Assembly (NCBI GenBank): GCA_947627505.1
Contig: CANQWG010000002.1
Coordinates: forward strand, 17,444 to 81,443
Length of the DNA: 64,000 bases
Direction: 5' to 3'
From: an uncultured Bacilli bacterium
GTDB lineage: Bacteria > Bacillota_I > Bacilli_A > RFN20 > CAG-449
Shown here: piece after piece, positions 35,621 through 52,855 of the stretch
Layout of the letters: every line of letters begins with the position of its first letter
Position numbering within the stretch: the stretch's first letter is position 1
Position numbers and translations under genes: made by a program
Notes under the pieces: generated by a model
What the model was told of the DNA's origin: nothing
Database searches by the model: none
What the model saw: only the letters and a program-made list of their open reading frames with translations

Positions 35621-37471
35621 TTAATTTAACGTCGGCACTCCATTTTCATCGTAATGCCATTCTTCTCCCCAGTAAACTGGTCTATCATTAGAATTCCAAT
35701 GATCATTCCAATCACTTGGTTTTGATGATGCTTCACAATAGATGGTTAAGGAGTCACATACGGAGAAAGCAGAACTTCCTATACTTGTGACACTATCTGG
35801 AATCACAATACTTTCTAAAGAAGTACATCTAACGAATGCATATAGCGCTATACTTGTGACACTATTTGAAATCACAATACTTGTTAAGGAACTACATTTT
35901 TCAAATGCTTCCTCTCCGATACTTGTGACATCATACGCAATTTCATTAATTTCTATAGTAGTCGGTATTTCTACATTTGTTGATGTTCCGACATATCTTG
36001 TTACTACTGCTTTTTCATTGACAATCACATATTGGATACCATCTTTTTCAATAAAATTATTTTCATTAATCCCCCAGTAAACTATTCCGCCATAGTAATT
36101 CCAATTACTAGCCCATCCGCTTGGTTTTTCTGATGCTTCACAATAGATGGCTGAAGAACTACAATCATAAAATGCTCGCTCTCTAATAACTGTAACACTA
36201 TTTGGAATGGTAATACTTAAGGCACTGCATCCGTAGAATGCATAGTCTCCGATATATGTAACACTACTTGGAATGGTGATACTTATTAAAGAACTACTTC
36301 TATCGAAGGCCCATTTTTCGATATTTATGACATCATATGTATTTTCATTAATTTCTATTGTTGTCGGTATTTCTAGATTTGTTGATGTTCCGACATATCT
36401 TGTTACTGATGCTTCTTCATTTCTTATTACATATTGTACACCGTCTTTTTCAATAAAAGTATTTTCATTAATTCCCCAGTAAACCGGTCGACCATGGGAA
36501 TTCCAATCATTCGACTGCTGCTTCCAACCTTCTGGCTCTTCTAATGCTTCACAATAGATGGTTAAGGAAACACAAGCATAAAATGCCCATTCTCCCATAC
36601 TTGTGACACTACTTGGAATGATGATGCTTTCTAAAGCACTACAATTATAGAATGCATATCTCTCTATACTTATGATATCACTTGGAATTGTAACACTCTT
36701 TAAAAAGCTGCAGTCAGAGAATGCATTTACAGGGATACTTGTTCCACCTAATATAATTATGGTTTTTAATGATTCTGGAACATAGTGAGCATTGGAACTA
36801 TACATTGATGCTCCAAAATAATAACTTATATATGTATCTATAAATGGTAAAGTTAAACTTTCTAAGGAATTACAACCTTCGAATGCACTTTCTCCGATAA
36901 TTGTGACACTACTTGGAATGCTGATCATTATTAAGGAACTACAATCCTTGAATGCATATCCCCCTATACTTTCCAATTTACTATTTGGTTCAAAAGTCAC
37001 ACTTTGTAATTGAGTACAATTTTCAAAGGCCAATTCCCCGATACTTGTGACACTACTTGGAATAGTGATACTTGTTAAGGAACTACAATTAGAGAATGCA
37101 GAATCCCCGATACGCACTAATACATATATCACATTATCAATAGTCAATTCTCTTGACAAATCGATATCTTCTGCTTGTTTATCTTTGACGCCGGTAACAG
37201 TATATGTATGATTTTCTTCATCTAAAGTATATGTAATATTCAATGCCTCCAAATATGGATCGCTCGATGAACTATCATCCGCCGATGATGATTCCTCTGA
37301 TGACGTTGTCGCTGACGATGAAGCTGACGTATCATTCGATGAGGATTTCTCTAATGACATCGTCGCTGACGATGAAGATGATGAATCATTTGTCGCACCA
37401 CTACAGCCACATAAGGTAGTCATCGCCACTAGTAATGCCGAAAGAATCTTTATACCATTTGCTTTTTTCAT
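35621..37471 (-). CDS. BspA-type LRR surface lipoprotein, paralog 3
   Basis: Lipobox TTLCGC. LRR_5-like repeats. Conserved C-terminus WHYDENGVPTLN. Confidence 0.8.
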   Translation of the reverse strand: MKKANGIKILSALLVAMTTLCGCSGATNDSSSSSSATMSLEKSSSNDTSASSSATTSSEESSSADDSSSSDPYLEALNITYTLDEENHTYTVTGVKDKQAEDIDLSRELTIDNVIYVLVRIGDSAFSNCSSLTSITIPSSVTSIGELAFENCTQLQSVTFEPNSKLESIGGYAFKDCSSLIMISIPSSVTIIGESAFEGCNSLESLTLPFIDTYISYYFGASMYSSNAHYVPESLKTIIILGGTSIPVNAFSDCSFLKSVTIPSDIISIERYAFYNCSALESIIIPSSVTSMGEWAFYACVSLTIYCEALEEPEGWKQQSNDWNSHGRPVYWGINENTFIEKDGVQYVIRNEEASVTRYVGTSTNLEIPTTIEINENTYDVINIEKWAFDRSSSLISITIPSSVTYIGDYAFYGCSALSITIPNSVTVIRERAFYDCSSSAIYCEASEKPSGWASNWNYYGGIVYWGINENNFIEKDGIQYVIVNEKAVVTRYVGTSTNVEIPTTIEINEIAYDVTSIGEEAFEKCSSLTSIVISNSVTSIALYAFVRCTSLESIVIPDSVTSIGSSAFSVCDSLTIYCEASSKPSDWNDHWNSNDRPVYWGEEWHYDENGVPTLN

Positions 37472-37696: not shown

Positions 37697-38974
37697 CTAT
37701 TCATAATACTCAAATTCAAAATCACAAAGAATCACAGTATCGCCGTCTTTAGCGCCCATCGCTTTTAATTCTTCATCGACTCCGATATTTCTTAAGATTG
37801 AAATCAGTTTCATGATTCCTTCATCAGTCGAAAGATTGATAAGCGAATACGTGCGTTCGATTCTTTCACCGCTGATTACAAAAGTGTCACTTTTGGTTTT
37901 GGTAATCTTGTACTCTTTTTTCATCTCTTCTTTGGCAGAGTAAACTTTCACTTCTTGATCTTTCGTCTCATAAAGCGGGAAAAGCGGCGTGACATCAAGT
38001 AATTGCTTTGCAGCATATAACATCTCTTCGATGCCTTGATGACGAACGGCAGACAACTTATATACTTGATATTGACCTTCAAGTTTTTCTTTGACCAAAT
38101 TATACTTTTCTTCACTTTGCGGATCTTCGACTTTGTTACAGGCGACAATCATCGGTCTTTTGATAAGATTAAATCCATAACTTTCAAGTTCCTGATTGAT
38201 CATTTTAAAATCCAACAAAGGATCTTCATGCTCCATATCTAGAACATGGATAATCACCCGACATCTTTCAATATGGCGTAAAAAATTCAAACCCAGTCCT
38301 TTTCCTTTATGCGCTCCTTCGATAAGTCCTGGAAGATCGGCGATTACAAACGATGAACCATCGGGTAAGTGCGTGACGCCGAGATTTGGAGTAATCGTCG
38401 TAAAAGGATAAGCGGCAATTTCAGGTTTAGCATTGCTGACGACGCTTAAAATCGTCGATTTACCGACACTTGGTAACCCTACTAACCCGACATCGGCTAA
38501 AAGTTTTAATTCCAATGTCAATGTCTTTTCTTCACCCGGCAAACCATTTTCCGCGACACGCGGTGCTCGATTTTTAGGGGACGCAAAACAAGCATTGCCG
38601 CGCCCACCGCGACCACCTTTAGCGACTAAAAACGTCTGCCCTTCAGTTGATAGATCACAAAGAAATAAATGTGATGGTTCCTCAAAAACGATGGTACCGC
38701 ATGGAACATCAAGATAGATATTATTTGCCGCGCGACCATACATTTTTTTGGCTAAACCTTTGCCACCTTCTTCGGCCTTGATGGTTTTAGCGTGACGATA
38801 ATTAATCAACGTCGATTCATCCGATGTAGCCCGTAAATAAATGCTACCGCCGCGCCCACCATTACCACCGCTTGGACCGCCGCGTTCAATGAATTTTTCG
38901 TGATGAAAGGCGATACATCCGTCTCCCCCTTTTCCGGCTTTGACAGTGAGTTTTGCTTTATCGATAAACATCAA
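37697..38974 (-). CDS. obg: GTPase Obg/CgtA
   Basis: Obg fold N-terminus (KAGKGGDG), G domain GLVGLPSVGKST, and a C-terminal TGS-like domain. Confidence 0.93.
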   Translation of the reverse strand: MMFIDKAKLTVKAGKGGDGCIAFHHEKFIERGGPSGGNGGRGGSIYLRATSDESTLINYRHAKTIKAEEGGKGLAKKMYGRAANNIYLDVPCGTIVFEEPSHLFLCDLSTEGQTFLVAKGGRGGRGNACFASPKNRAPRVAENGLPGEEKTLTLELKLLADVGLVGLPSVGKSTILSVVSNAKPEIAAYPFTTITPNLGVTHLPDGSSFVIADLPGLIEGAHKGKGLGLNFLRHIERCRVIIHVLDMEHEDPLLDFKMINQELESYGFNLIKRPMIVACNKVEDPQSEEKYNLVKEKLEGQYQVYKLSAVRHQGIEEMLYAAKQLLDVTPLFPLYETKDQEVKVYSAKEEMKKEYKITKTKSDTFVISGERIERTYSLINLSTDEGIMKLISILRNIGVDEELKAMGAKDGDTVILCDFEFEYYE

Positions 38975-39043
38975 GTTACCTCCTTCCGTTATGATATGTA
39001 TTTTTTTAATAAAAAAGCCATCCTTAACGGAGGCTTAGTTTTT

Positions 39044-39343
39044 TTATTTGTCTTGAACCGGTTCAACGATTGCCCGAGTTCTGTTTTTGCCCCAGCGCTT
39101 ATATCTTACGACACCATCGCAAGTTGCAAAAATCGTATCGTCGCCACCGCGCATCGTATTAAGACCCGGATAGATCTTGGTGCCACGTTGACGATAGATG
39201 ATTGATCCCGCGGTAGCAAATTGACCATCAGCCTTTTTGGCACCTAATCTTTTCGATTCGGAATCACGACCATTTTTGGTTGAACCAACACCTTTTTTAG
39301 AGGCGAATAATTGAATATTTAATTGGAATCTCATTTCTTGCAC
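39044..39343 (-). CDS. rpmA: 50S ribosomal protein L27
   Basis: N-terminus includes the Prp-cleaved extension motif FASKKG; 99 aa. Confidence 0.93.
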
Positions 39344-39654
39344 CTTCTTTCATTTTCAATTGTAATATTTTGAGGGTAAACTTGCTTTAATGTTTCTAAT
39401 TGAGTGATGATCACCTGAAGTTTTAAAACAGCACTATCGGACTCAACAATTTTGATTTTAGCTAATCCCTCTTTTAATGAAATCTCTTTGATTTCTTTAT
39501 CATCGAAAGCATTAAATCCTCCGGTGATAATTGAAGAGACACTCGCACAGACGACATCTTGACCATAGTGATCGTAATTTGCGTGACCTTTGACTTCTAG
39601 TCCACAAAGTCGATCAGAAGATCTAAACACTTTAGCGCGAATCATCTTAGGCAT
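39331..39654 (-). CDS. prp: ribosomal-processing cysteine protease Prp
   Basis: 107 aa between rplU and rpmA, with conserved His and Cys (GHAN...CASVS). Confidence 0.85.
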
Positions 39655-39958
39655 TGATAGCTTCGATGGTTAAGCAAGTATAGGGTTGACGATGACCCTG
39701 ACGTCTGCGGTAATTCGCTTTACTCTTGTACTTGAAGACCAAGATTTTACGAGCTTTTCCTTGTTTTTCAACTTTTCCAACGACAGTTGCACCTTCTAAT
39801 AATGGTGAACCAACTTTCGCTTCGCCCTCACCGCCGACAAGAAGCACTTTATCAAAGGTAACACTTGAACCAACTTCCGCGTCGATTTTTTCAACGTAGA
39901 TCTTGCTTCCGACTTCGACTTTGATTTGCTTTCCGCCAGTTTCAATAATTGCGTACAT
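39647..39958 (-). CDS. rplU: 50S ribosomal protein L21
   Basis: [11 protein letters not shown]... signature N-terminus; 103 aa. Confidence 0.93.
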
Positions 39959-40100
39959 TCTTTAGGCACCTCCTATTGTGTAGATTTAGACTCGCTCTTA
40001 AGGTCGAGCATTCGCTCAGTTATTTACCTTTTTGAGGCGGTTGAAGCCCTCCACTGAGGCGACAACATTCAAATAATATCATTCACTTTGCTCACTTTCA
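39959..40100 (-). promoter_or_regulatory. putative structured 5' leader of the rplU-prp-rpmA operon (L21-leader-type autoregulatory element)
   Basis: A ~140-nt untranslated region upstream of rplU with a GC-rich helix (GGAGGGC...GCCTC). Firmicutes carry an L21 leader at this position. Confidence 0.45.
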
Positions 40101-40223
40101 AGCATTTGAAAGTCAAATTATATAAAAAATCAGCTTTTGCTCAAAGAAAAAGTTCCTCGTTTTATTACACTCATAAAGTTAAATATTTGATGAATAGCAT
40201 TTAATATCTTTAAGTTATTAAAC

Positions 40224-41000
40224 CTATTTATCAACCGATTGATATTTTTGATCTTTGACTATTTTTTCAATCAATTGATCTTCATTGTAGATTGTATGGT
40301 TTTCCAAATAGTAATTGTTAGAATAGCGATAGATTTCCTTCTTTGTATTCACACGTTCGTGAAGCGGTTTTTTATTTCCAAGACGTCTTAAAATATCTTT
40401 GAAAAAATCTTTTTTCAATCGCATCCATTGGGCTATTAATGAAAAGGCGATAAAGATCATCAAGATAATTTGACGATTAGTGATACAAAGATAACCGATG
40501 TAAAAAAATGTCAAAACGTTGAAGATGAGTCGCACGACACGCAACTTATATTCATCTAAAAAACGGGCGCCGATCACATCGACGATACGACCGCCATCCA
40601 AAGGATAAAAAGGTAATAAATTAAATAGCAATACCGCTTGATTGGAAATCATACCCTGTTCAAAACCATATATTGAAATAAGGTCCATTCGATACATTAA
40701 TGTTAAAATTCCCCAGGAAATAAAATAACTCAAGGGTCCAGAGATAATGACGATGATTTGAGTCAAGAGATTTTTTTGTTCCAATCCTTGAATCTGTGCA
40801 TAAAATCCAAAAGGCAAAAAATGGATTTCAGGAACTGCGACTTTAAATATTTTTGCGCTACAAACGTGCGACATTTCGTGGATAAAAGCGATAAGATAAT
40901 GAATAAATAAATATAAAAAACGATTAAAAACAAAACCCATGACGATGTACACGATCGTCAATGGGTCGACGAAAAAAAGACTATAAGACGGCTTCTTCAT
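40224..41000 (-). CDS. spoIVFB: site-2 (M50) intramembrane zinc metalloprotease, SpoIVFB-like
   Basis: HExxH (HEMSHV) within a TM helix and an LDG motif (NLLPFYPLDGGR). Position after the spoIVFA-like gene. Confidence 0.75.
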   Translation of the reverse strand: MKKPSYSLFFVDPLTIVYIVMGFVFNRFLYLFIHYLIAFIHEMSHVCSAKIFKVAVPEIHFLPFGFYAQIQGLEQKNLLTQIIVIISGPLSYFISWGILTLMYRMDLISIYGFEQGMISNQAVLLFNLLPFYPLDGGRIVDVIGARFLDEYKLRVVRLIFNVLTFFYIGYLCITNRQIILMIFIAFSLIAQWMRLKKDFFKDILRRLGNKKPLHERVNTKKEIYRYSNNYYLENHTIYNEDQLIEKIVKDQKYQSVDK

Positions 41001-41559
41001 ATTTTATAAGATGATTTTCTTTTGAAAACAAAACTTTAAATTTGCCATTATAAGTTCCAAGAGTGTCACCTGCTTTAAGCTGATCGTAAACTTTCACTTC
41101 GATCGTCTGTAGCATGAAGTATGTGGCGACCACTCCGTTATCTAAAGAAGCGATCACAATTTGTCCTTCACTATCGGAACTCGTAAAAAGAATTGTGCCA
41201 GGTTTAAGCATCAAAACTTCGTTAGTTTCATAACTGAAATAATTTTCACCCTCATTGATGTAAGCGACAGAACCATTAACCGTTTGCTCATTACCTAAAG
41301 CGTTTTGATTGTTGAAAATATTAAAATTAAAAACCGAATTTAAGAATGATGAAATATTTTCATTCATGGTTACGAATGAAGTTTCAATGTTAAAATGTTC
41401 TTTAAGAAAAGAGCCATTTTCATCTTTTTTGGCGTAGATTAAAAAACCCATAGCCATCGTAAAGATCATCATCAGTAAAGAAAGAGTTCGCCAAATCGTC
41501 GTTTTTTTCTTTTGATATTGTCGTTCGATACGTCTTTTAATTTTTTCTATCGATTCCAT
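40981..41559 (-). CDS. spoIVFA: SpoIVFA-like membrane protein with a degenerate LytM/M23 domain
   Basis: N-terminal basic region plus a single TM. C-terminal degenerate M23 fold (DNGVVATY...GDTLGT). Sits between minD and spoIVFB as in B. subtilis. Confidence 0.5.
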   Translation of the reverse strand: MESIEKIKRRIERQYQKKKTTIWRTLSLLMMIFTMAMGFLIYAKKDENGSFLKEHFNIETSFVTMNENISSFLNSVFNFNIFNNQNALGNEQTVNGSVAYINEGENYFSYETNEVLMLKPGTILFTSSDSEGQIVIASLDNGVVATYFMLQTIEVKVYDQLKAGDTLGTYNGKFKVLFSKENHLIKYEEAVL

Positions 41560-41591
41560 ATTCTTAGTCCTTTTCTAAAAAATTATATGTT

Positions 41592-42284
41592 TTAAACTGC
41601 GATAACATTCATAATTATATTGAAGAGTTTCTCTTGATCTTTTCGTCGCCCTTTAAAAAGCAATTTGTCGACATCGCATTCTTCAAAAGAAAAAACTCTT
41701 TCTAATCCGAGGCGATATTTAATTTCATCGATTCGTCGTAACAAATTCGCTCTTTTTAAGCGAGTGCGATTCAAGACACCGGTTATTTCAAGATTACCTT
41801 GCGCCTTTAAAAGTTTGATGACTAATTTGCTGTCATGGAGACTGCACTCTTCATCATTTACAATAACTAACGCTTGCGTCGCATTTTTTTTAGCGATATA
41901 AAAACCATCATCAATTCCCGCCGGAGAATCAATCAAGATGTAGTCATAGTCACTTTTCAATTCTTCGATCACTTGATCAAGAAAAATTTCCGGGAAATTT
42001 CTGACGTCGCTTTTTAAGCATAAAGGCAAAACATGAAGCGATGGTTCAAAATCATCGTATTCCAAGGCATCTTGTATCGTACATCGCCCTTTAATAACAT
42101 CGGAGATATCATATCTGGCTTTTTGAGAGATTTTTAAGACCAAATCCACGTTTTTTAAACCAAGATCGGCATCGATAATGAGTACACGATATTTTCGTTT
42201 GGCAAGTGTCTTACCAAGCAAAGAAGTAAAAGTTGTTTTTCCGACGCCACCTTTTCCGGAGGTAATTACGAAAATATCGCGCAT
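41592..42284 (-). CDS. minD: septum site-determining ATPase MinD
   Basis: Deviant Walker A GKGGVGKTT; ParA/MinD family; 230 aa. Confidence 0.85.
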   Translation of the reverse strand: MRDIFVITSGKGGVGKTTFTSLLGKTLAKRKYRVLIIDADLGLKNVDLVLKISQKARYDISDVIKGRCTIQDALEYDDFEPSLHVLPLCLKSDVRNFPEIFLDQVIEELKSDYDYILIDSPAGIDDGFYIAKKNATQALVIVNDEECSLHDSKLVIKLLKAQGNLEITGVLNRTRLKRANLLRRIDEIKYRLGLERVFSFEECDVDKLLFKGRRKDQEKLFNIIMNVIAV

Positions 42285-42775
42285 AAGTCCTCCTTATAAG
42301 ATAGGTTACATTCATTGATTGTACACGGAAAAAACGAACCTGATGGATGCACTAATTTAGCGTTATCCAGTTTTTTGGCGATCAATTTAGCCTCCGTATT
42401 TTCAAAAATGATCGTCCCTTTTACTTCGCTCATAATCACTAGTTCGCTTTGCAAATGAATTACCGTCGTATCTTCTATCGGAAAAAATATAATCGTCGGT
42501 TTTTGAATCGTTATCTCATCAGGGAAAACATCTTCTTTAAGAATTTGAACTTCGTTTTTAATCACTTTATATGAATTGATAAAACCCGATTGATAATAAT
42601 CTAGCCGACCAAGCAAGGGTAAAAAAACATCGTCGAAAATATCTTTATTGACGATAACATCGATACTCAAAATATCGTTCGACTCTTTGCATTCGCTCAA
42701 GGCTTTCTCTAAATCTACAAAACCTTGCGACACATCACTCTCTTTTTCACAAAGCCATGTGTAATTGATTGTCAT
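42266..42775 (-). CDS. minC: septum site-determining protein MinC (short form)
   Basis: 169 aa with a C-terminal beta-helix domain. Overlaps the minD start. Confidence 0.6.
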   Translation of the reverse strand: MTINYTWLCEKESDVSQGFVDLEKALSECKESNDILSIDVIVNKDIFDDVFLPLLGRLDYYQSGFINSYKVIKNEVQILKEDVFPDEITIQKPTIIFFPIEDTTVIHLQSELVIMSEVKGTIIFENTEAKLIAKKLDNAKLVHPSGSFFPCTINECNLSYKEDLCAIFS

Positions 42776-42827
42776 TTAATCACCTCGTAAATAGAGATTA
42801 TAGATTTATAAGGTGTCGAAATGATGG

Positions 42828-43526
42828 CTATTCAGTCGAGTGATCGATATTTATTAACTTTTTTTCTTTTAATGAATAGGCTTTGGTAAGCCCCACGATC
42901 AGATGATCGATCAAAGCGATTCCCAAAGTCAAAGCGACGATCATCAATTGATTGGTCGTTTTGATATCTTCATTTGACGGAGCGACATTATCGCTTGGAT
43001 GATTGTGCAATAAATATACCTTTTTGGCTCCATCTTTAATGGCCAAGCGAAAAATATCGCGGTAATCGCCAAACACGCTAGTTTCAGTACCTTTATAAAC
43101 TAAATGAAAAGCGATAAGCTTATTGGTTCGAGTAAGTGATGCCAAATATAAATTTTCTTGTCGTTCACCTAAAAAGCGCGGCGCAAAAAACGATATCACT
43201 TTGTTTGCATCGTCAAAGATTATGCTCGTTTGATGACTAAGATCAATCATTCTGTGTCGCATTTCTTCCACGGCCTTAATCGTCAAAGCTTTGACTTCAT
43301 TTATGCCACGATACTTGATTATTTCATCAAATGGAGCCTCAAAGACATTCAATAATCCGTTAAATTCGTAAATCAATTCTCGCGAAAGGTCTAAGGCCGA
43401 TTTATTTTTAGTACCGCTTGATAGCACGATAGCTAATAATTCTTCATCGCTTAAACTTTTAAAGCCGTAGAGTTTTGCTTTTTCGCGCGGTCGTAATAAT
43501 GGTGGTATCTCTTTGATTTTAGCCAT
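42828..43526 (-). CDS. radC: RadC-like JAB/MPN-domain protein (UPF0758)
   Basis: HhH N-terminus (SDEELLAIVLSSG) and JAMM motif HNHPSD. I place the start at the ATG (MAKIKEIPPL), not the GTG 3 codons upstream. Confidence 0.8.
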   Translation of the reverse strand: MAKIKEIPPLLRPREKAKLYGFKSLSDEELLAIVLSSGTKNKSALDLSRELIYEFNGLLNVFEAPFDEIIKYRGINEVKALTIKAVEEMRHRMIDLSHQTSIIFDDANKVISFFAPRFLGERQENLYLASLTRTNKLIAFHLVYKGTETSVFGDYRDIFRLAIKDGAKKVYLLHNHPSDNVAPSNEDIKTTNQLMIVALTLGIALIDHLIVGLTKAYSLKEKKLINIDHSTE

Positions 43527-43705
43527 TATTTCCACTCGAAGCGATAGCCACCGGGCAAGGTTGTCGAACCGGTACTAGACATAAAAAGGCGATAACAAAT
43601 CACCGCTAAAAGGGCCGCCGACATCACAGCTAAAACCATCGTTAAAGTGATCGCTTCGCCACCTTTAATAAGAGCCATTTCATCGTTATTTAATTTTCTC
43701 ATCAT
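43526..43705 (-). CDS. unannotated 59-aa peptide with a double-glycine-type leader (MMRKLNNDEMALIKGG | EAITLTMVLAVMSAALLAVICYRLFMSSTGSTTLPGGYRFEWK)
   Basis: ATGATG start preceded by a GGAGG RBS at the correct spacing. Its stop TAA overlaps the radC ATG (TAATG). The leader matches the L(-12) E(-8) hydrophobic(-7) I(-4) G(-2) G(-1) consensus. It is below the 60-aa ORF-track cutoff. Confidence 0.55.
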   Translation of the reverse strand: MMRKLNNDEMALIKGGEAITLTMVLAVMSAALLAVICYRLFMSSTGSTTLPGGYRFEWK

Positions 43706-43745
43706 ATATCCTCCTATCTATCAATAAGAGAATATTTTACAAATT

Positions 43746-43769
43746 AAAAAAAACGGACGAGCCGTTTTT
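43746..43769 (-). terminator. rho-independent terminator immediately after the valS stop
   Basis: Hairpin AAAACGG-CTCGT-CCGTTTT followed by a T-run on the minus strand. Confidence 0.7.
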
Positions 43770-46358
43770 TTATAAATTGTTCTTTTTATCGCGATATTCT
43801 TGAAGTTGTTTTTTGTAATCAGCTAATTTCTTTTGCTCTAAAGCGACCTTTTCTTTTGGAGCTTTGGCTATAAAGTTTTCGTTAGAGAGCATCTTTTCCC
43901 CTCTTGCAACTTCTTGTTCCAAACGTTCGATTTCAGCATTTAAAGTCGCAAGTAATTTTTCTTTGTCGACATTATCTTTGATGACCATCGTTGCCAATTG
44001 ATAAACACGGGGATTTCCATCTTTAAACTCATTTACAAAGTTGATCTTTGAAGCGAAAGTCATTCGCTTTAAGAATGGTAATAAAATTTCAACCAGCGGT
44101 CGTTGATTTGTAATTATTTCTAATTCAATCGGGGCGTTAGGCGCTAATTTACAATCGACTTTGTAGCTACGGACATCTTTGATCATCTTAATTAAATCGA
44201 GAACGATCATCTCGGATTTTTCATCATACCGCTCTTTGGATACTTCTGGATAAGTTTCAAGCATTATCGATTCCAGGTGATGCGGTAATTGTTGATAGAT
44301 TTCTTCCGCAATGAAAGGAACATACGGATAAATTAAAATTACGATATCTTTAAGTACTTTTAATAAAACCGCTTTAGTATTACGTACAGATTCAACGTCT
44401 GCAGTATTTAATTTGACTTTGGCTAATTCCAAATACCACGAAGTGAAATCATCGTAAACAAAATTGTACAAGTGAGTCGAAGCATTGGCAAAATCGTATT
44501 TATCCATATTCAAAGTAACGTTTTCAACGCACTTATTGAGTCTCGACAAAATAAAACGATCGAGGACATCGAGTTTTGAATCATCGATATCGAGTTTTTC
44601 TTCCTTTTCGAGATTAAGCAAAATAAAGCGAGCCGCATTCCATATTTTATTGAGATAATTGCTCGCGGACTGTAATTTGATGTCACTATAACGAGTATCA
44701 AGGCCCGGTGACGTTGAAGTAGTTAAGAAATACCTTAAAGCATCAACTCCATATTTTTCAATGACATCGATAGGATCGATTCCGTTGCCTAAGGACTTGG
44801 ACATCTTTCGTCCTTGCTCATCACGAATAAGGCCGTGAATCAAAACTTTTTTAAAGGGATGCGTATCGGTGAATTCCAAGCCTTGGAAAATCATTCGCGA
44901 CACCCAAAAAAAGATAATATCGTATGCCGTCACTAAAACGTCAAGCGGATAGTAACGTTTTAAATCTTCGGTTTTCTCGGGCCATCCAAGGGTTGAAAAC
45001 GGCCATAACGCACTTGAAAACCACGTATCGAGGACATCTTCATCTTGGATGTAATTTTCAAGATCTTTCGGTGGTTCTTCGCACACGATCATTTCCCCGG
45101 TAGTTTTGTGGTAATACGCCGGGATTCGATGTCCCCACCAAAGTTGGCGAGAAATACACCAATCTTCGCAATCCTTCATCCAATTGGTGAAGATTTTTTC
45201 AAATCTTTCCGGAATAAAATCGACGCGATTTTCACTCTTTTGAGCTTCAAGAGCCTGCATTGCCAAGGGTTTCATTTTTACAAACCACTGTTTTGACAAA
45301 TATGGTTCGACGACGCATTTGCTTCGTTCCGAATGGCCAACCGGATGGACGATATTTTCAATCTTGATTAAATTACCTTCTTTTTCAATTGCTGCGACTA
45401 ATTTATCGCGACATTCGTAACGATCTAATCCGACGTATTTTTCACCACACAAGTCATTCATCGTAGCGTCTTCATTCATACAGATCGGATGGGGAAGATG
45501 ATGACGTTTAGCAATTTCAAAATCATTCGGATCATGTGCCGGGGTACATTTCATGGCGCCCGTTCCAAATTCAATATCTACGTACTCATCGCCAATTATA
45601 GGTAATTCTTCGTGATTTGCCGGATTGATAACTTTTTTTCCGATTAGGTCTTTATAACGCTCATCGCGAGGATTGACGACGACACAAACATCGCCAAACA
45701 TCGTTTCAGGACGGGTAGTAGCGACCTCTAGAAATCGCGAAGTTCCGACAATTTGATATTTGAAATAATAAAATTTTCCTTGATCGTCGCTATGGATAAC
45801 TTCGATATTGCTGAGCGCAGTTTTTAAAACCGGATCCCAATTGATGATTTTCTCGCCACGATAAATCAAGCCTTTTTTGTACAATTCGCAAAAGACATGA
45901 CGAACCGCTTTATTAAGTCCTTCATCCAACGTAAAACGTTCGCGATTATAATCTAGCGATAGACCCATCATTTTCCATTGGTCATGAATTGTTTCACTGT
46001 ATTCTTTCTTCCATTCATAGGCTTTTTCTAAGAACTTCTCACGTCCTAAATCATATCGTGAGATTCCTTCTTTCCGCAATCGTTCTTCGACTTTGGCTTG
46101 GGTCGCAATGCCGGCATGATCCATTCCCGGCACCCATAAAACATCGTATCCTTTCGCCCGTTTATATCTTGCGATAATATCTTGAATCGTCGTATTCCAA
46201 GCGTGACCTAAATGTAATTTACCGGTAACGTTCGGTGGGGGAATAACCATCGAAAATTTAGTTTTCGTTAAATCCTTAGTGCCAAAATATCCGCGTTTTT
46301 TCCACTCGTCATACTTTCCTTTTTCGACTTCATGATGATCATAATGTTTGCTAAGCAT
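43770..46358 (-). CDS. valS: valyl-tRNA synthetase
   Basis: HIGH (PPNVTGKLHLGHA) and KMSKS motifs. 862 aa with a C-terminal coiled coil. Confidence 0.95.
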   Translation of the reverse strand: MLSKHYDHHEVEKGKYDEWKKRGYFGTKDLTKTKFSMVIPPPNVTGKLHLGHAWNTTIQDIIARYKRAKGYDVLWVPGMDHAGIATQAKVEERLRKEGISRYDLGREKFLEKAYEWKKEYSETIHDQWKMMGLSLDYNRERFTLDEGLNKAVRHVFCELYKKGLIYRGEKIINWDPVLKTALSNIEVIHSDDQGKFYYFKYQIVGTSRFLEVATTRPETMFGDVCVVVNPRDERYKDLIGKKVINPANHEELPIIGDEYVDIEFGTGAMKCTPAHDPNDFEIAKRHHLPHPICMNEDATMNDLCGEKYVGLDRYECRDKLVAAIEKEGNLIKIENIVHPVGHSERSKCVVEPYLSKQWFVKMKPLAMQALEAQKSENRVDFIPERFEKIFTNWMKDCEDWCISRQLWWGHRIPAYYHKTTGEMIVCEEPPKDLENYIQDEDVLDTWFSSALWPFSTLGWPEKTEDLKRYYPLDVLVTAYDIIFFWVSRMIFQGLEFTDTHPFKKVLIHGLIRDEQGRKMSKSLGNGIDPIDVIEKYGVDALRYFLTTSTSPGLDTRYSDIKLQSASNYLNKIWNAARFILLNLEKEEKLDIDDSKLDVLDRFILSRLNKCVENVTLNMDKYDFANASTHLYNFVYDDFTSWYLELAKVKLNTADVESVRNTKAVLLKVLKDIVILIYPYVPFIAEEIYQQLPHHLESIMLETYPEVSKERYDEKSEMIVLDLIKMIKDVRSYKVDCKLAPNAPIELEIITNQRPLVEILLPFLKRMTFASKINFVNEFKDGNPRVYQLATMVIKDNVDKEKLLATLNAEIERLEQEVARGEKMLSNENFIAKAPKEKVALEQKKLADYKKQLQEYRDKKNNL

Positions 46359-46379
46359 ATACGTTTTCTCCTTTTAATA

Positions 46380-46616
46380 AAAAAACGTCCGTTTAAGGAC
46401 GCTTATGCGTGGTACCACCTTAATTCAACCATTTTGGTTGCACTCTTTACAGGCGATAACGGTGCCTTCCGGGGAGATTAATCCCATACTCCCGAGCGAC
46501 CATCTTCAAGTTTCTTCAGCTTTTTTCACCGACCAAAGCCTCTCTTAGAATACCTCTTGAAGAACCTCTCGTTCTTCGTACTTTCATATTATTTTATAAA
46601 AAAGCGACGATGTCAA
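46380..46616 (-). promoter_or_regulatory. T-box riboswitch leader of valS (promoter, stem I, T-box antiterminator sequence and terminator)
   Basis: The minus-strand sequence AATTAAGGTGGTACCACG matches the conserved T-box. It is followed by the terminator GCGTCC-TTAAAC-GGACGT+T6 just upstream of the valS start. A TTGACA -35 lies at 46611-46616. Confidence 0.8.
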
Positions 46617-46661
46617 CATTATTTTTTAAAGTATGTCTCCGATTTGTGCGTTTTTTAATAA

Positions 46662-46685
46662 AAAAATCACAATAATGTGATTTTT
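46662..46685 (-). terminator. bidirectional terminator after nadE
   Basis: Hairpin AAAAATCACA-ATAA-TGTGATTTTT. Confidence 0.7.
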
Positions 46686-46721
46686 CTATTTGGTATCATT
46701 TTAATTTTAAATGAATTTAAC

Positions 46722-47459
46722 CTACTTATTTTTTATAAACTGCGGCATCGGCAGCACCTTGTGTAAATTTTTTCGATGCATGGTATCGATTTTTTCTTTA
46801 ATAAGCGGATCGTCGATTTCACCGGTTTCGATATATCGATCAAGAACGGCATAGGTAAATCCTAAATTATCTTCATCAGTTTTACCTGATAATCCGTCTT
46901 CTGGAATTTTTTCGATAAATTTTTCCGGAAGTTTCAATTGTCGTCCTAGCGCTTTTACTTCACTGACTAAAAGATCGCTAATGGGACTAAAATCGCCGGC
47001 GCTATCACCGAATTTTGTCGAATAGCCGATATAATCTTCAGATTTATTGCAGGTGTTAACCACTAATCCATGGTAGATGGCCGAAACTCCGTATAAGACT
47101 GTCATTCTTATTCGTGCCGGAGTATTGGAATAATAGACTTTGTTAGTGCGTAGTTCTTCTTTGGAAATTCCGGCATTGGATAAAGCCGTGACGACTGCTT
47201 CACATGTTTCGCCGATATTAACCTCAAGATGTCGAATTCCTAAATATTCTACTAAATCATATGACATTTGAATATCGTGTTGCGAACCTTGCGGCATTAA
47301 AACTCCGATTACTCTTTCTTTACCCAATGCTTCCACCAGCAAAGCGGCACAAACCGAACTATCTTTGCCGCCGGAAATTCCGATTATCGCATTGAGGTCT
47401 TTCCCATTTTGATTGAAATAATCTTGAATCCACAAAACAATTTGTTCTTTGATGTTCAT
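46722..47459 (-). CDS. nadE: NH3-dependent NAD+ synthetase
   Basis: PP-loop SGGxDS (GISGGKDSS); 245 aa. Confidence 0.85.
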   Translation of the reverse strand: MNIKEQIVLWIQDYFNQNGKDLNAIIGISGGKDSSVCAALLVEALGKERVIGVLMPQGSQHDIQMSYDLVEYLGIRHLEVNIGETCEAVVTALSNAGISKEELRTNKVYYSNTPARIRMTVLYGVSAIYHGLVVNTCNKSEDYIGYSTKFGDSAGDFSPISDLLVSEVKALGRQLKLPEKFIEKIPEDGLSGKTDEDNLGFTYAVLDRYIETGEIDDPLIKEKIDTMHRKNLHKVLPMPQFIKNK

Positions 47460-47503
47460 ATTTTTCCTTTCATTAATTCGTTAGAGGTCATTTGGCGAAT
47501 TAT

Positions 47504-49999
47504 TTATTTCAGATAAGTCAAACTATCGCCGATCTTACTTAAAGTACCGGTAGAAGCGTTTTCTAAAACGTAAATTCTAGCGTTTCCTTTAGAGATTGAA
47601 TCACTAGTTAAAGTTCCACTTGTCACGTTCACTCTTTGCCCGGTGATTAAATCGACGTAAGTGCCGTTTGGAAGGCCGCGGAACGTGGCTCCGCTTGAAA
47701 TCGTAACACATGCCAATGAATCGATATTGCCTTCGGTGTAACGACGAATGAAGGCCATATTTCCGCTAACATTACTAGTGGTATATTGACCGCGTCTTAA
47801 CGCCGGCACCGCTTGTCGAATGCGATTTAATTTTTGTAAATGCTTTGAAAGCGTGGAATTTAAAGTTTGATTGACTTTTCCATCCGCGGTATAAATGCCA
47901 AAATCAGAAGCTTTGACGTTTCCGGTGAGGTTATCACCATAATAAGCTCTTCCCGTTTCGGCTAAAGGTACTTCGGTTCCCTTATCGATAGGTTTATTCT
48001 TTTGGAATTCGATTTCACTTCCATAATAGATGCAAGGAACGCCTCTGAATGTGAACATCAACGACATATTTTCAGCCCAAGCATCGGTACCACCATTGAA
48101 TCTCACAAATTGACAATCATCTGGTGAATAATCGTGAGAATCAACGTAAACGACGTTATAAGTCGCATCTTCATAATATTGATCATTTTCTGTGGCGACA
48201 TTGAACGCATCTTGTGCTTTGTAAAAATTCCAGTGCATCGGGAAATCGATAACTCCACTACCGCTTGCGTTAGTATGATCGGGTTTATGGTAATTTAAAC
48301 CGCTTAACTTTGCGTTAGTCGAAGTTCTTTGACCACTTGAGGTGGAATTGTCGTTATATGCCAATTCAATACTATTTAAATTGGTGACTTTATCGCCCCA
48401 AGGATATTCTTTATTCTCCTTCCAAGTATAGAAAGGCGCGCTTAAAGCCGGAATTCCGTGATTCCAAATTTCACGGACTCTCGCACAAACTTCGCCAAAC
48501 ATAAAGAAATTATTGTTGCCGCAACGTTTAGCGAATTCGTAAAGTCCCGGAATAATATAATTGTTAAGCGTCAATCTTGAGATATGTTTCATCGTATCGA
48601 CACGGAAATAATCGACGCCGAGACGAATGAAATCGCCATAACATTTAACAAGATATTGAGCGACAATCGGGTTTTCGGTATTTAAATCAACACAGTCTCC
48701 GGCGATTTGCGCCACTTGTTCTCCAAATGATTCCCAGGAGAAATTACCATAGTGATGGTAAATATCATTGGGATCGGAACCATCATTTCTGATGTTCTTC
48801 ATATTGTTAATTCTTGCATCGTATTGTTGTCCGCCATCTAATGAGAAATAATTTTCCGGCAAGCCAGAATTTTCAAGCATCGACAAGCAGTTAGAAGTAG
48901 AAAGATCGCCTTTCTTTTCAAACATCGGGAATAAATTCTTTTCACCGAAATTGCCGGTGTGATTGAAGACAACGTCGAGCACTAATTTCATGTCGCGTTT
49001 ATGAACTTCTTCAATCAAAGTTTCAAAGGAAACGTCTTCCGATTCATAACGTTCATCGACTTTTGATAAATCTAAAGCATGGTAGCCATGATAATCATAT
49101 CCGGAGCAATTTTCAACCACCGGGGTAATCCACACAGCCGTGAAACCTAAAGCCTTGATATAATCGAGTTTTTGAATTAAGCCTTTGAAATCTCCGCGCC
49201 ATGCTGGATCTGAAGAAGCATCTTTACCATCCCAACAAGCGACGTTATTTGAAGGATCGCCATCGTAAAAGCGCGTAGTGATTGCAAAATAAATCGATTC
49301 ATCGCGGAAATCGGTTCTTTGTCCTTGATATGGATGTAAAACTTTGAAATAATCGTCGCCTAATTCATTCCACATCGGAAAATCTTTATAACTTTTAGCT
49401 TCAAAGGGGCTAATCGGCTTTTGACTTCCGCCACCGCCGACTTGATTATTAAATTCACCACCGTAAACATCAGAGTGACTCCAATTGCTGTTATTAAACC
49501 AATGGTATCCGACACCGCTTACTTCTAAATCTCTAGTTTGATTACCGGTTTTATTAAAAATAAGATTAACCGAAGTTAAACCTTCATCAAAATCGTAATA
49601 ATCCCAATCGTTATCGTAACTTTTTAACGGCGTTACGGGCCATTGTCCGAAATATTCAACGGTAGCGCCATTGATTTTATTCCAAGCGTAAATGTTGCTC
49701 CACCCTTTTTTGACTAAAACTCTAATATTATTGATCGCCGGCAAAATCTCACCTTTTGGTGTACTTGAAGCACTAGAAGAAGCCGAAGAGGCACTTGAAG
49801 TAGGGGTACCATTGTCATTAGAAGAATTGGCATTACCACTCGATGAATTTTCATCAGTTGCCGAAACTTCGCTAGTAACATCTTGAGTAGAAGCAGAACC
49901 TTCATTAGAAGTTTCATTACTATTATGTTGCGGATTTGCACCACATGATGTCATACTCAATAACATCGTCATTGATAACAATAATAATTTCTTTTTCAT
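47504..49999 (-). CDS. GH13 alpha-amylase-family lipoprotein with an N-terminal Ser/Thr-rich linker
   Basis: Lipobox LSMTSC. GH13 region I DVVFNH and region II DYFRVDTMKH. 831 aa. Confidence 0.8.
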   Translation of the reverse strand: MKKKLLLLSMTMLLSMTSCGANPQHNSNETSNEGSASTQDVTSEVSATDENSSSGNANSSNDNGTPTSSASSASSSASSTPKGEILPAINNIRVLVKKGWSNIYAWNKINGATVEYFGQWPVTPLKSYDNDWDYYDFDEGLTSVNLIFNKTGNQTRDLEVSGVGYHWFNNSNWSHSDVYGGEFNNQVGGGGSQKPISPFEAKSYKDFPMWNELGDDYFKVLHPYQGQRTDFRDESIYFAITTRFYDGDPSNNVACWDGKDASSDPAWRGDFKGLIQKLDYIKALGFTAVWITPVVENCSGYDYHGYHALDLSKVDERYESEDVSFETLIEEVHKRDMKLVLDVVFNHTGNFGEKNLFPMFEKKGDLSTSNCLSMLENSGLPENYFSLDGGQQYDARINNMKNIRNDGSDPNDIYHHYGNFSWESFGEQVAQIAGDCVDLNTENPIVAQYLVKCYGDFIRLGVDYFRVDTMKHISRLTLNNYIIPGLYEFAKRCGNNNFFMFGEVCARVREIWNHGIPALSAPFYTWKENKEYPWGDKVTNLNSIELAYNDNSTSSGQRTSTNAKLSGLNYHKPDHTNASGSGVIDFPMHWNFYKAQDAFNVATENDQYYEDATYNVVYVDSHDYSPDDCQFVRFNGGTDAWAENMSLMFTFRGVPCIYYGSEIEFQKNKPIDKGTEVPLAETGRAYYGDNLTGNVKASDFGIYTADGKVNQTLNSTLSKHLQKLNRIRQAVPALRRGQYTTSNVSGNMAFIRRYTEGNIDSLACVTISSGATFRGLPNGTYVDLITGQRVNVTSGTLTSDSISKGNARIYVLENASTGTLSKIGDSLTYLK

Positions 50000-50133
50000 A
50001 AACGTCCTTTCATCCTTTAACTGAAATTAGTATACAAAAAATTTAAAAATTATGAAAGCGTTTTATAATATATAAAATTTTACTCCATGTCACTCTTTGG
50101 GCCATTTAATCATATACATTTATTGGTGATGAT

Positions 50134-50331
50134 ATGAAAGATTTTTTCGATAAAGTCAAAATGCAATTTCCGATTTGGAAAGACAAATTTTTAAGTTCGA
50201 TTGGTATAATTTTAGTTTATCAAGCATTTTTATTTTTAATTTCCCCTAATTTTACCAATCAGATTTTACTGGTGATCATCATTCTGATTTTTGCTTTTCA
50301 GCAGATGTCAAAGCCAAAAGTTTCGTCGTGA
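50134..50331 (+). CDS. possible small 2-TM membrane protein (65 aa)
   Basis: ATG with GGTGAT 5 nt upstream, and a hydrophobic sequence. Its 3' end overlaps the convergent ysxE-like gene. Confidence 0.25.
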   Translation: MKDFFDKVKMQFPIWKDKFLSSIGIILVYQAFLFLISPNFTNQILLVIIILIFAFQQMSKPKVSS

Positions 50332-51217
50332 GATCTTCGACTAAGCGTAAGTGATTTAAAGCTTGAGTGAGGTTTTCAATATCGTCGATATCTTCGCGCA
50401 TTCGAGTGATTTTAGGAATGAACAAATACGCCAGTAACCATTCCACCTCATAAGGAGCCAAAGAGTATATCGAAAGATATTCTTTTAACAAGAACGATAT
50501 TTCAAATTTCAATTCATAACTGACATCAACCAAATTGATTAAATCGTATATTGCCGGTGCTAATGCCATTTTATCAAGTGAAACAATTTTTTGTTGTTTT
50601 ACTAAAATGTGAGAAAAATCAAAATTTTGATATGTCAAACAAAGGTGGAGACTATCGCTGTTGTTCCATTCGCTTTCCAAATTGACCACGCGACGTTCTG
50701 CCTCCTTGATTGCCTTCATCAAATGATCGTAATTCATCATAAAGAACCAATCCGCGGGCGAATGATAATCCATCCTTTCGACCCGTTCAATACGCGCTAA
50801 AAGCGCATTTTTTACTTCGGCGATTTTATTGTCGAGATAATTTAACGATTCTTCTAAATAACCATCGTTGATTTTAATATTATAAATCGTCTTTTGATGA
50901 AGGTTAGCAATCGCTTTAATATAAAACGAGAGACGGACATCTTTAGCTAAAGTATTTTCATCTTTTAAGTATATCGAAAGTGAAAAATACTTTTCTTCAA
51001 AATATTCAATATACCGATCATTAATTGATTTTAACGGCAATAAAAAAGTATCGATACGCAACATTGAAAGACGCCCAAAGATGTTTTCTAGCGCTTGGTC
51101 ATCGTGAAATTTTAAAATATACGTATCATTTTCACCGACTAATTTTTTGGCTTTATTTGAGATCGTAATGATGGAATTTATTTTTATTTTATATAACTCT
51201 TCAATGCGTGTTTTCAT
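50279..51217 (-). CDS. ysxE: CotS/YsxE-family spore coat protein (aminoglycoside phosphotransferase-like fold)
   Basis: Kinase-like fold signatures. Located immediately downstream of the spoVID-like gene, as ysxE is in B. subtilis. Confidence 0.55.
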   Translation of the reverse strand: MKTRIEELYKIKINSIITISNKAKKLVGENDTYILKFHDDQALENIFGRLSMLRIDTFLLPLKSINDRYIEYFEEKYFSLSIYLKDENTLAKDVRLSFYIKAIANLHQKTIYNIKINDGYLEESLNYLDNKIAEVKNALLARIERVERMDYHSPADWFFMMNYDHLMKAIKEAERRVVNLESEWNNSDSLHLCLTYQNFDFSHILVKQQKIVSLDKMALAPAIYDLINLVDVSYELKFEISFLLKEYLSIYSLAPYEVEWLLAYLFIPKITRMREDIDDIENLTQALNHLRLVEDLTTKLLALTSAEKQKSE

Positions 51218-52203
51218 TTTCGCGGTAACTCTAAAAGTTCATCGGAACGAATTTCTTTATGGGGATTCAAACGTTTTATTTCAAGCGGTTCTAGATTAAA
51301 AGTTTCGGCGATTGATTCTAAAGTATCTCCGTTTTTAACTCGATAAAAAATATAAGAAGATCGATACGTCTCTTTAAAGCTTAACCGATTTCGATCCTTC
51401 TTTTCTGAATCACCATTTTTTTTCGGTTCGATGGGTGCCATTTCTTTTTCTTCGTGACTTGGTTCTTCATTTGCAATGTCACTTTTATCTTCGCTTTCAT
51501 TGATAATCGGAACTTGTTCCATCATCTCATCTAGCGATTCTTTAGTGTCTTCTTCGATCGTGGTTGGAATTTTCATCGAACCATCTTCCTCTTTTTCGGT
51601 ATCATGATATTTAATCATCGATTCTTCCAGTTCGATTATTTCGTCATCTTCATTGAATTCATTAGCAAAATAGCTCTTTAAATCTTCGTCTTCAAGCGAA
51701 GAGAACACCTCTACTTGCTGATTGTCGCCACTTGCAATCATCGTCTCTATCGTGTCTAAAAAGTTTTTATCAAATGTCTTTCGATGACCTTTCCGCGTAA
51801 TTTTGGGAAAATCCAAAATCTGCTCAACTAACAGTTCATTAAACATTTGATCTTGACTCGGTTCAAATTTTTCAAAATCATCTTGGTCTCCGACAAGATG
51901 ACACTTTATCTTAAACACCACTTCATGTTCGTTTGAAGAATAGCTTAAATCGTCAACCATCAAAGAAAGATCTTTCATTTGATCGATTTTATTAAGGGGT
52001 ACAAAAATGTCGACCGGTACTTTCTTATCAAATTCTTTATTTTCTTCATCATAACAAAAAAGACCATTTAAAATTATTTCTCCGGTAATTTTAACTCCGT
52101 CACCTTCTTTTTGATATTTAAACGAATTATCGCACTTTAAATCCTTGATGGCTTTTAAATCCCGCTTCAAATAGATCCGATCTTCCAAGACAAATGGTTG
52201 CAT
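51214..52203 (-). CDS. spoVID: SpoVID-like spore coat morphogenetic protein with a C-terminal LysM
   Basis: N-terminal domain, acidic middle region, and a C-terminal LysM (YRVKNGDTLESIAETFNL). Synteny with engB, lon and tig. Confidence 0.55.
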   Translation of the reverse strand: MQPFVLEDRIYLKRDLKAIKDLKCDNSFKYQKEGDGVKITGEIILNGLFCYDEENKEFDKKVPVDIFVPLNKIDQMKDLSLMVDDLSYSSNEHEVVFKIKCHLVGDQDDFEKFEPSQDQMFNELLVEQILDFPKITRKGHRKTFDKNFLDTIETMIASGDNQQVEVFSSLEDEDLKSYFANEFNEDDEIIELEESMIKYHDTEKEEDGSMKIPTTIEEDTKESLDEMMEQVPIINESEDKSDIANEEPSHEEKEMAPIEPKKNGDSEKKDRNRLSFKETYRSSYIFYRVKNGDTLESIAETFNLEPLEIKRLNPHKEIRSDELLELPRK

Positions 52204-52284
52204 AATGAAACCTCCGTATTCAATAAATCATACGTTTTTTTTTAATTTATTATTACAAAAAAGGTGTGTTTTATATCACACCTT

Positions 52285-52854
52285 TTATAGCATCGCATCA
52301 CTGATACGTTTTTGTAATTCTTCGATTCCTTGTTTTTTTAAAGAAGAGACCATAATATAGTCTGAAGTTTCAAAAAGATTTTCGATGGTCCGTTTAATTT
52401 TAAAACGTTCCGATTGATTGAGTTTATCGCACTTAGTCAAAACGATTAAAGCCGGGACTTTCAGTTCACTTAGATATTCGAAAAAATTGCAATCATCGTC
52501 ACTCGGTTCGTGTCTTGAATCTAATAACCATACCACGAGTTTTAAGCGATGATTATGTTCGAAATACTGGCTCATCATCTCATCAAATTGATCTTTTTTA
52601 CCGAGTTTTCGATAACCATAACCTGGAGCATCTACAAGATAAAATCTTTCATCGATTAAGAAGTGATTTAATAGTTTTGTATGACCTGGCGTTTTTGAGA
52701 CATAAGCTAATCCCTTATTGTCACATAATGCGTTGAGTAAACTCGACTTTCCAACATTAGATTTTCCAACAAAAAGGACATGATCGTAGTCGTAAAGAAC
52801 ATCATCTTTATCATAGGCAGATTTTACAAATTTTGCTTTTCGAAAGTTGATCAT
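52285..52854 (-). CDS. engB: ribosome biogenesis GTPase EngB/YsxC
   Basis: G1 GKSNVGKSS, G3 DAPG and G4 TKCD motifs. I place the start at the internal ATG (MINFRKAKF). Confidence 0.85.
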   Translation of the reverse strand: MINFRKAKFVKSAYDKDDVLYDYDHVLFVGKSNVGKSSLLNALCDNKGLAYVSKTPGHTKLLNHFLIDERFYLVDAPGYGYRKLGKKDQFDEMMSQYFEHNHRLKLVVWLLDSRHEPSDDDCNFFEYLSELKVPALIVLTKCDKLNQSERFKIKRTIENLFETSDYIMVSSLKKQGIEELQKRISDAML

Positions 52855-52855
52855 T

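Follow-up and report, generated by a model that had tools for sequence, protein, structure and literature searches.

The gene considered here codes for a small protein and lies on the minus strand of a 64,000-nucleotide (nt) stretch of DNA from an uncultured Bacilli bacterium (GenBank assembly GCA_947627505.1, contig CANQWG010000002.1, positions 17,444 to 81,443; the whole stretch is called the window below), where it leads directly into radC. It appears as a minus-strand open reading frame (ORF) at 43526..43705, with an ATG start and 59 codons if counted from the first ATG; other gene callers also predict it, and the opposite strand of the interval holds no ORF of 30 or more amino acids (aa). 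Two ATGs stand in tandem at its start, and the sequence ahead of the ORF, read 5' to 3', is TAGGAGGATATATGATG. A first-pass annotation, made from the letters alone, had noticed this hidden ORF and credited it with a GGAGG ribosome-binding site and an ATG opening a 59-aa product. Both signals are present, but the choice of start needs revision: the GGAGG (43714..43710) stands 7 nt from the second ATG (43702) as against 4 nt from the first, and a homologue with 81% identity (L001) has ATA in place of the first. Hence, the second ATG is most likely the start, which would give a gene at 43526..43702 (58 aa and a stop codon), with the first ATG at 43705 as the alternative that yields 59 aa. Measured against L001, the ratio of nonsynonymous to synonymous substitution rates (dN/dS) is 0.095 for the whole gene, 0.07 for the part following the leader described below (the mature part) and 0.20 for the leader itself, at a synonymous divergence of about 1.5, which is near saturation.

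The homologues of this ORF form a large family. A word-indexed protein search recovered just three near-identical proteins; an exhaustive phmmer search over 1.84 billion representatives returned 56 matches at E<=1e-3 (these being representatives at 50% clustering), almost all of them 57-62 aa long; and a profile search gathered 1332 clusters at 90% identity, every named one of which is a 'hypothetical protein' and none of which carries a meaningful Pfam domain. The scattered weak matches that the family does produce are to double-glycine leader families or to generic transmembrane (TM) segments, and the window peptide has no Pfam or NCBIfam model above its cutoff. The family consensus can be written as M..L(S/T)..E(M/L).....G-EAITLtAVMAilaiAivAVivY(R/K)LF.S..G....PGG..F.W. 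Given the dN/dS of 0.095 and a family of this size with members nearly all of 57-62 aa, the short ORF is, by these measures, a genuine gene under purifying selection, which bears out its original recognition, and the family itself reads as an unannotated small-protein family.

As to its distribution, a scan of species-representative genomes with a narrow family alignment found 65 loci, all in metagenome-assembled genomes (MAGs), which besides some evident mislabels are assigned to uncultured Bacilli, Bacillota or Erysipelotrichaceae. The carriers are gut and freshwater uncultured Bacilli, RFN20 among them. One of the loci is that of Clostridium sp. CAG:288, and CAG-288 is a family within the uncultured order RFN20, related to the Mycoplasmatales (PMC10868615). 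The gene sits at the same genomic position, and not in multiple copies, in about 65 species. In the MAG SUG1798 two contigs (L078 and L079) each hold a near-identical peptide-radC pair; either the pair is duplicated or the bin is a mixture of strains. A scan of viral contigs found no family member, and a phage or mobile origin was rejected on this ground together with the core-syntenic position.

Three parts can be told apart in the protein: a 15-residue double-glycine-type leader, MRKLNNDEMALIKGG, at 43658..43702 (minus strand), delimited by its pattern and by the family profile; a predicted TM helix, residues 17-37, AITLTMVLAVMSAALLAVICY, at 43592..43654, with Glu16, largely conserved, just ahead of it; and a basic C-terminal tail, RLFMSSTGSTTLPGGYRFEWK, at 43529..43591, which bears the motif PGGxxFxW and whose last codons hold the radC start region. 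The first-pass annotation had described the mature part as a single hydrophobic helix with an aromatic and basic tail, and this description holds: the Kyte-Doolittle maximum, as a 19-residue mean, reaches 2.53 over the segment ITLTMVLAVMSAALLAVIC, and the tail is present. AlphaFold2 (AF2), supplied with 62 homologues, modelled a continuous helix over residues 6-41 and a C-terminal beta-hairpin with strands 45-49 and 53-57 that turns at the invariant P-G-G, at a predicted local distance difference test score averaging 79.5, with values up to 96 within the TM core and near 70 for the hairpin. Sequence searches of the PDB matched single-pass TM segments only. Taken together, a single-pass (bitopic) membrane protein with a strong TM helix is the best-supported description of the predicted product. 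Across the family the mean net charge is -2.05 for the N-terminal tail (Glu+1 included) and +1.79 for the C-terminal tail, the latter being the more positive in 52 of 57 distinct sequences, and the positive-inside rule predicts an N-out/C-in topology. A class III signal of the Flp/type IV pilin kind was considered and rejected, there being a Glu at +1, L/I/M at position +5 and no Flp or pilin Pfam match at E<=1.

The second constant of the locus is radC (42828..43526, minus strand), which codes for an N-terminal HhH domain followed by a RadC-type JAB domain. By its scores (PF20582, 75.6 bits; PF04002, 104.6 bits; NF000642, 184.7 bits against a cutoff of 180) the partner protein is an ordinary RadC as defined by Pfam and NCBIfam, and the catalytic residues E, H-N-H and P-S..D are invariant in 38 and in 21 partner sequences, so that RadC looks catalytically intact in all partners. 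The TAATG overlap seen in the first pass is there: the peptide's stop TAA (43528..43526) shares its last A with the ATG of radC, an identical junction recurs in L001, L006 and L007, and the window radC has no independent, well-spaced Shine-Dalgarno (SD) sequence. In all 62 loci where radC lies next to the peptide gene (from uncultured Bacilli, some 55 of them separate species MAGs) the best radC start falls between -14 and +6 nt from the peptide stop, with offset classes of -14 (23 loci), -10, -8, -4, -1 (7 loci, the window included) and 0 to +6. This geometry suggests translational coupling of the two genes, as had first been surmised. In the -14 class, the largest (e.g., L024, L032 and L039), the start chosen for radC is a TTG that arises where TTT GAG encodes the Phe and Glu of the conserved F-E-W, and it lies 14 nt inside the gene of the peptide. 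The window has an alternative radC start in a GTG that is in frame, falls within GAGTGG (43535) and comes before the radC ATG. The last codons of the peptide may thus be constrained at the nucleotide level too.

A look at relatives, proposed at the outset as a way of testing the linkage, finds it deeply conserved across these 62 loci. The upstream neighbor in most loci is valS, and the peptide-radC pair is kept even where valS is not upstream (L013, L018, L020, L023, L052, L059, L063, L077 and L082), where minCD is not downstream (L082) and among the most divergent members of the family, whose identity is down to 36-41%. Peptide and radC thus appear to be a conserved two-gene module, within which the small protein is the more constrained member: in 60 comparisons with the window, peptide identity exceeded RadC identity every time (medians 55% and 34%). 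Within the peptide, the same comparisons gave a median identity of 60% for the mature part and 40% for the leader, and P50, G51, G52, F55 and W57 are invariant in both MAFFT alignments, of 15 and of 62 sequences. Full-text literature searches turned up no account of a small membrane protein dedicated to RadC; the association of this family with radC reads as one that is undescribed and deeply conserved. Two departures from the usual arrangement were seen. In L022 (8001..8787) and L021, radC has dropped out cleanly from its place between the peptide and the minC-position gene, and in L011 (3157..4931) the gene for a 478-aa Sel1-repeat protein comes directly after an intact peptide.

The leader deserves closer description. 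That of the window, M(M)RKLNNDEMALIKGG, carries L-12, E-8, M-7, I-4, K-3 and GG, so that every position of the double-glycine consensus claimed for it in the first pass (Leu -12, Glu -8, a hydrophobic residue at -7, Ile -4 and the Gly-Gly) is present. A regular expression for such leaders, run over the six frames of the window, matched this ORF alone; run over the six frames of 955 kb (the window plus 80 loci with about 8 kb of flank each, i.e., about 1% of each genome), it matched 41 family members and two neighboring peptides of L012 and nothing else, for which reason the pattern is not a product of chance. Among 106 distinct sequences, position -12 is L/M/I in 92%, -11 is S/T/N in 75%, -8 is E in 82%, -7 is M/L in 69%, -4 is I/L/V in 65%, -2 is G in 52% and +1 is E in 84%. 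Because the positions conserved are those of the canonical LSxxELxxIxGG consensus, the resemblance also looks specific. These counts were anchored on the Gly ahead of the TM helix, which fixes Gly-1 by construction; in the MAFFT alignments, which are independent of the anchor, Gly-1 is conserved in at least 90% of the 15 sequences and is invariant in the 62, while Glu+1 (E16) is invariant in both and stands at 84-97% in the anchored counts.

Among 160 distinct sequences the GG state is found in 43%, and the remaining 57% lack Gly-2, having V, S, T, A, P or K there. Members without GG retain -12, -11, -8 and -7, and in them the cleavage-proximal features fall away: -4 is hydrophobic in 27% as against 87% of GG members, and -3 is basic in 8% as against 47%. 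Hence, the family appears to exist in two states, one with a complete canonical leader, as in the window, and one in which the cleavage-proximal half has decayed, both with the same mature domain and the same radC coupling. The first-pass annotation had held that homologues lacking the GG motif would speak against the leader; as it turns out, Gly-1 is conserved and Gly-2 occurs in only 43-52%, depending on the set. With Gly-2 lost along with -4 and -3 in about half of the family, the conserved function, whatever it is, does not depend on a canonical GG site or on canonical C39 cleavage. Curated models respond faintly to the family: weak matches to TIGR01847, TIGR03949, PF10439 and PF04369 occur, the window peptide scores 13.1 bits with TIGR01847 (cutoff 15.7), and among 55 members, which other than the window's were judged by E-values and not by bits, TIGR01847 matched two (best E 0.011) and PF10439 three (best E 0.0011) at E<=1. 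We consider descent of the leader from a class II bacteriocin or pheromone-type double-glycine leader most likely. As first remarked, no C39 exporter or immunity gene lies nearby: a motif scan of the window and the 80 loci found neither an ABC ATPase nor a C39 Cys motif, a result that bears on linkage and not on genome-wide absence; Pfam applied to some of the large window ORFs found no C39/ABC exporter; and no immunity-like partner is consistently adjacent, the neighbors being valS and radC. On the 1067-nt contig of L012 (375..1010, plus strand), three tandem small ORFs of 58, 55 and 61 aa lie between the 3' end of valS and the start of radC, each with an L..(E/Q)L..(I/V)(K/T)GG leader and a different hydrophobic segment; the third alone belongs to the family and it, too, runs on into the N-terminus of radC. 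A metagenome scan for relatives of the first of the two extra peptides found none.

Expression of the module seems to be restrained at the start of the peptide gene. A 13-bp hairpin at 43706..43735 (minus strand; -13 kcal/mol, z = -3.46), predicted by folding, holds the peptide's SD sequence (AGGAGG, 43715..43710) in its 3' arm, and the arrangement recurs in the 40-80 nt spacers between valS and the peptide gene of other species (L018-L080). In minimum-free-energy folds, 32 of 51 peptide leaders have every base of the SD core paired, as against 10 of 78 control strong-SD sites from the same loci (Fisher p = 6e-9). Over 63 distinct leaders, the SD bases are paired with an upstream partner in 51-59, and the flanking pairs are of several Watson-Crick types (at +6: GC 7, AU 11, UA 21 and CG 6). 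The anti-SD arm is CCTCCT, CCTTTT or TTCTCTT, and the hairpin is often followed by a T-run and then the ATG, for which reason it may also act as the terminator of valS in many species; no Rfam family matches it. In the window an intrinsic-terminator-like hairpin with its own T-run (43747..43771) comes directly after the valS stop and is kept with a compensatory change in L001. Since most spacers would be too short for a promoter, the peptide-radC module is probably read through from valS and translationally throttled.

The wider neighborhood is that of core genes. The valS gene (43770..46358, minus strand; identified by Pfam) is the usual upstream neighbor and has a T-box leader at 46392..46585 (Rfam T-box, 102 bits). 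Over 37697..56508 the minus-strand order runs from tig, lon, a gene for an engB-like GTPase and one for a SpoVID-N/LysM protein through T-box-valS, the peptide gene and radC to the minC-position gene, minD, genes for M23 and M50 peptidases, rplU, prp, rpmA and obg, which we take to follow the corresponding region of Bacillus subtilis, with the M23 and M50 genes at the positions of spoIVFA and spoIVFB. The first reading had the usual neighbors of the B. subtilis gene replaced or absent, and so they are: folC-comC-maf and mreBCD are not at their usual places, the peptide gene standing in for the former and mreBCD being absent after radC, and an amylase gene and nadE are inserted ahead of valS. 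At the minC position is a 169-aa ORF (42266..42775, minus strand) that overlaps the start of minD; it has no Pfam or NCBIfam match, and BLASTP against the Pfam-positive MinC at the same position in L013 was not significant. It would be either a very divergent MinC or a replacement, the label being positional. Elsewhere in the window, three consecutive large ORFs of 524, 665 and 699 aa (25200..31097, minus strand) have no Pfam family at E<=1e-5; they adjoin genes for three BspA-type leucine-rich-repeat proteins at 31218..33008, 33729..35108 and 35621..37471, the first two so called by Pfam and the last by the precomputed annotation of its counterpart in L004.

Putting these observations together, we lean, with some reserve, towards the view that the gene codes for a conserved housekeeping small bitopic membrane protein that is made together with RadC and is probably its partner, rather than for a secreted bacteriocin. 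Briefly, the following mechanism would be plausible. With the start of radC overlapping or abutting the peptide stop, synthesis of RadC would depend on translation of the peptide and scale with it, and the translation of the peptide would itself be throttled by the SD-sequestering hairpin. The product would insert N-out/C-in, as its charges predict, in the manner of the Pf3-coat-type substrates of YidC, which would place the PGGxxFxW tail, regarded as its most conserved part, in the cytoplasm. There the modelled hairpin, an obvious candidate for the RadC contact, might dock RadC with its HhH and JAB domains at the membrane or else regulate it. A bolder and decidedly unlikely extension would have RadC act at the membrane with this dedicated small protein, either tethered or activated by the hairpin tail or itself removing the leader by means of the JAB domain.

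Several facts sit uneasily with the partnership that we favor. All family members come from MAGs or metagenomes and no cultured representative was seen. The peptide is intact in three species (L021/L022 and L011) where radC is not adjacent, for which reason its function may not strictly need RadC. The conserved L-12, S/T-11, E-8 and M/L-7, joined in the 43% subset by I-4, K-3 and GG, are not explained by a mere N-out tail; these are positions that matter for recognition by C39 peptidases, and the three L012 peptides with one leader type between them suggest a shared machinery that reads such leaders.

These last points bring us to the orphan double-glycine peptide, in which a distant C39 ABC exporter would cut after Gly15 and export the hydrophobic 43-mer as a bacteriocin, a pheromone or a self-inserting membrane peptide, the link to radC being mere operon economy. 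The fit of the window leader down to its K-3 and GG, the retention of -12, -11, -8 and -7 at 69-92% across the family and of -4 at 87% in the GG subset, the weak matches to the four leader models and the L012 peptides, which share the leader type and nothing else, all speak for it. Nevertheless, we hold it to be unlikely. No C39 or ABC motif occurs within about 8 kb in the 80 loci or in the 64-kb window, nor is there a consistently adjacent immunity-like gene; 57% of the 160 distinct members lack Gly-2 and the -4/-3 features; the 21 uniformly hydrophobic residues between the E and the Y-R resemble a stable TM anchor and not an amphipathic bacteriocin; and the tight, universal overlap with radC would be left unexplained. 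Moreover, bacteriocins are accessory and fast-evolving, whereas this is a syntenic core gene of about 65 species whose mature part has a median identity of 60% and a dN/dS of 0.07. Core synteny, slow evolution, loss of Gly-2 in half of the members, a TM-anchor-like segment and the want of a linked exporter or immunity gene thus make it unlikely that the product is secreted as a classical bacteriocin or pheromone, conceivable though this is for the GG-state members. Of the three possibilities offered in the first-pass annotation, that of an orphan bacteriocin or signal peptide fares worst, because the gene is single-copy and syntenic in its many hosts, its mature part outconserves RadC, Gly-2 is missing in about half of the family and no curated model is matched at its cutoff. 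The data agree best with the remaining two, namely a membrane protein of small size whose leader is unusual, and a peptide tied functionally to the JAB-domain protein.

That RadC might instead process the peptide is an attractive but weak idea, which we rate as quite improbable: the JAB metallopeptidase domain would cut after Gly-1 (G|E), co-translation delivering enzyme and substrate together. JAMM enzymes do cut after the Gly-Gly of ubiquitin-like proteins, Gly-1 (at least 90% or invariant) and Glu+1 (invariant) are retained in two independent alignments, and the partner in this obligate pairing is a JAB protein that keeps its catalytic E, HNH and S..D without exception. The modelled leader, on the other hand, is a helix and not a beta-grasp ubiquitin-like fold, an N-out topology would put the junction across the membrane from RadC, three species keep the peptide with no radC next to it, and Gly-2, which is important in JAMM substrates, is variable in the family. 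Comparative genomics further points to nucleic acids as the target of RadC-type JAB domains, which would perhaps be nucleases rather than peptidases (PMC3239186). A small hydrophobic single-TM peptide behind a conserved SD-sequestering hairpin also recalls type I toxins and stress-induced peptides, with the hairpin blocking translation and membrane insertion depolarizing or arresting the cell. Such a role seems very improbable here: a consensus scan of the opposite strand of the interval found no promoter or terminator, the gene is fixed in the core genome, not multicopy and not on viral contigs, and such toxins are not typically so strongly conserved or obligatorily coupled to a housekeeping gene. 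Finally, the stop/start overlap or abutment in all radC-adjacent loci and the lack of a well-spaced SD sequence of its own for the window radC would be what one expects if translation of the ORF merely loaded ribosomes onto radC, the peptide being functionless. This is scarcely credible given the strong purifying selection on the amino acids, the conservation above that of RadC, the invariance of P50, G51, G52, F55, W57 and E16 in both alignments with G15 invariant or at least 90% conserved, and the survival of the gene intact where radC is no longer adjacent; the protein-level conservation pattern effectively refutes a passive upstream ORF.

If the partnership of the small membrane protein with RadC is correct, it would matter in several ways. 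RadC is present in most bacterial lineages, and neither a function nor a substrate has been established for its JAB domain (PMC3239186); a small protein whose sequence is kept better than that of RadC, and whose gene stays fixed to the radC start codon throughout a deep lineage of uncultured Bacilli, would offer a concrete handle on that function. The module would also yield the first candidate put forward as a specific physical partner or substrate of RadC. Were the JAB domain to remove the leader, this would constitute a new, C39-independent processing of double-glycine-type leaders. More generally, a housekeeping membrane protein can, it appears, carry a textbook double-glycine leader without an exporter gene in the vicinity; genome-mining pipelines in which the leader by itself is taken as the sign of a bacteriocin should be used with this in mind. 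The small-protein catalogue also gains an unannotated family of at least 1332 clusters.

Against this backdrop, the module may be set beside four known systems. It has in common with class II bacteriocins and pheromones a 15-residue N-terminal segment (with L-12, S/T-11, E-8, M/L-7, I-4 and G-G) ahead of a peptide that is small, hydrophobic and cationic, but differs from them in that the gene is core, syntenic, slowly evolving, coupled to radC and free of a linked C39-ABC exporter or immunity gene; in its family Gly-2 is variable, Gly-1 and Glu+1 are conserved instead and few members match the curated models. With the pairs formed by JAB/JAMM proteins and ubiquitin-like proteins (QbsD-QbsE and Mec+-CysO), the likeness lies in a small protein with a Gly(-Gly) motif encoded beside a JAB protein with intact metal ligands; the peptide, however, is of a helical membrane type, its Gly motif is N-proximal (residues 14-15 of 58) and not C-terminal, and comparative genomics points to DNA as the substrate of RadC-type JAB domains (PMC3239186). 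As regards genomic context, in B. subtilis a sigma-M promoter within maf drives radC together with mreBCD-minCD (PMC6827917), so that a membrane or envelope setting for RadC is not new, and it is the dedicated small membrane partner that is new in the literature searched. Both loci place radC among cell-envelope and division genes, and the window keeps the valS ... radC ... minD order; it differs in having the small-protein gene in place of folC-comC-maf and no mreBCD between radC and the minC-position gene. The fourth parallel is with the Pf3-coat-type small single-span proteins, which are N-out/C-in and inserted by YidC. Like them, the peptide has about 50-60 aa, a short acidic N-terminal tail, one TM helix, a basic C-terminal tail and the same predicted topology; unlike them, and with no homology to them, it has a specific pattern in its N-terminal tail and a conserved beta-hairpin motif, as modelled, in its C-terminal one.

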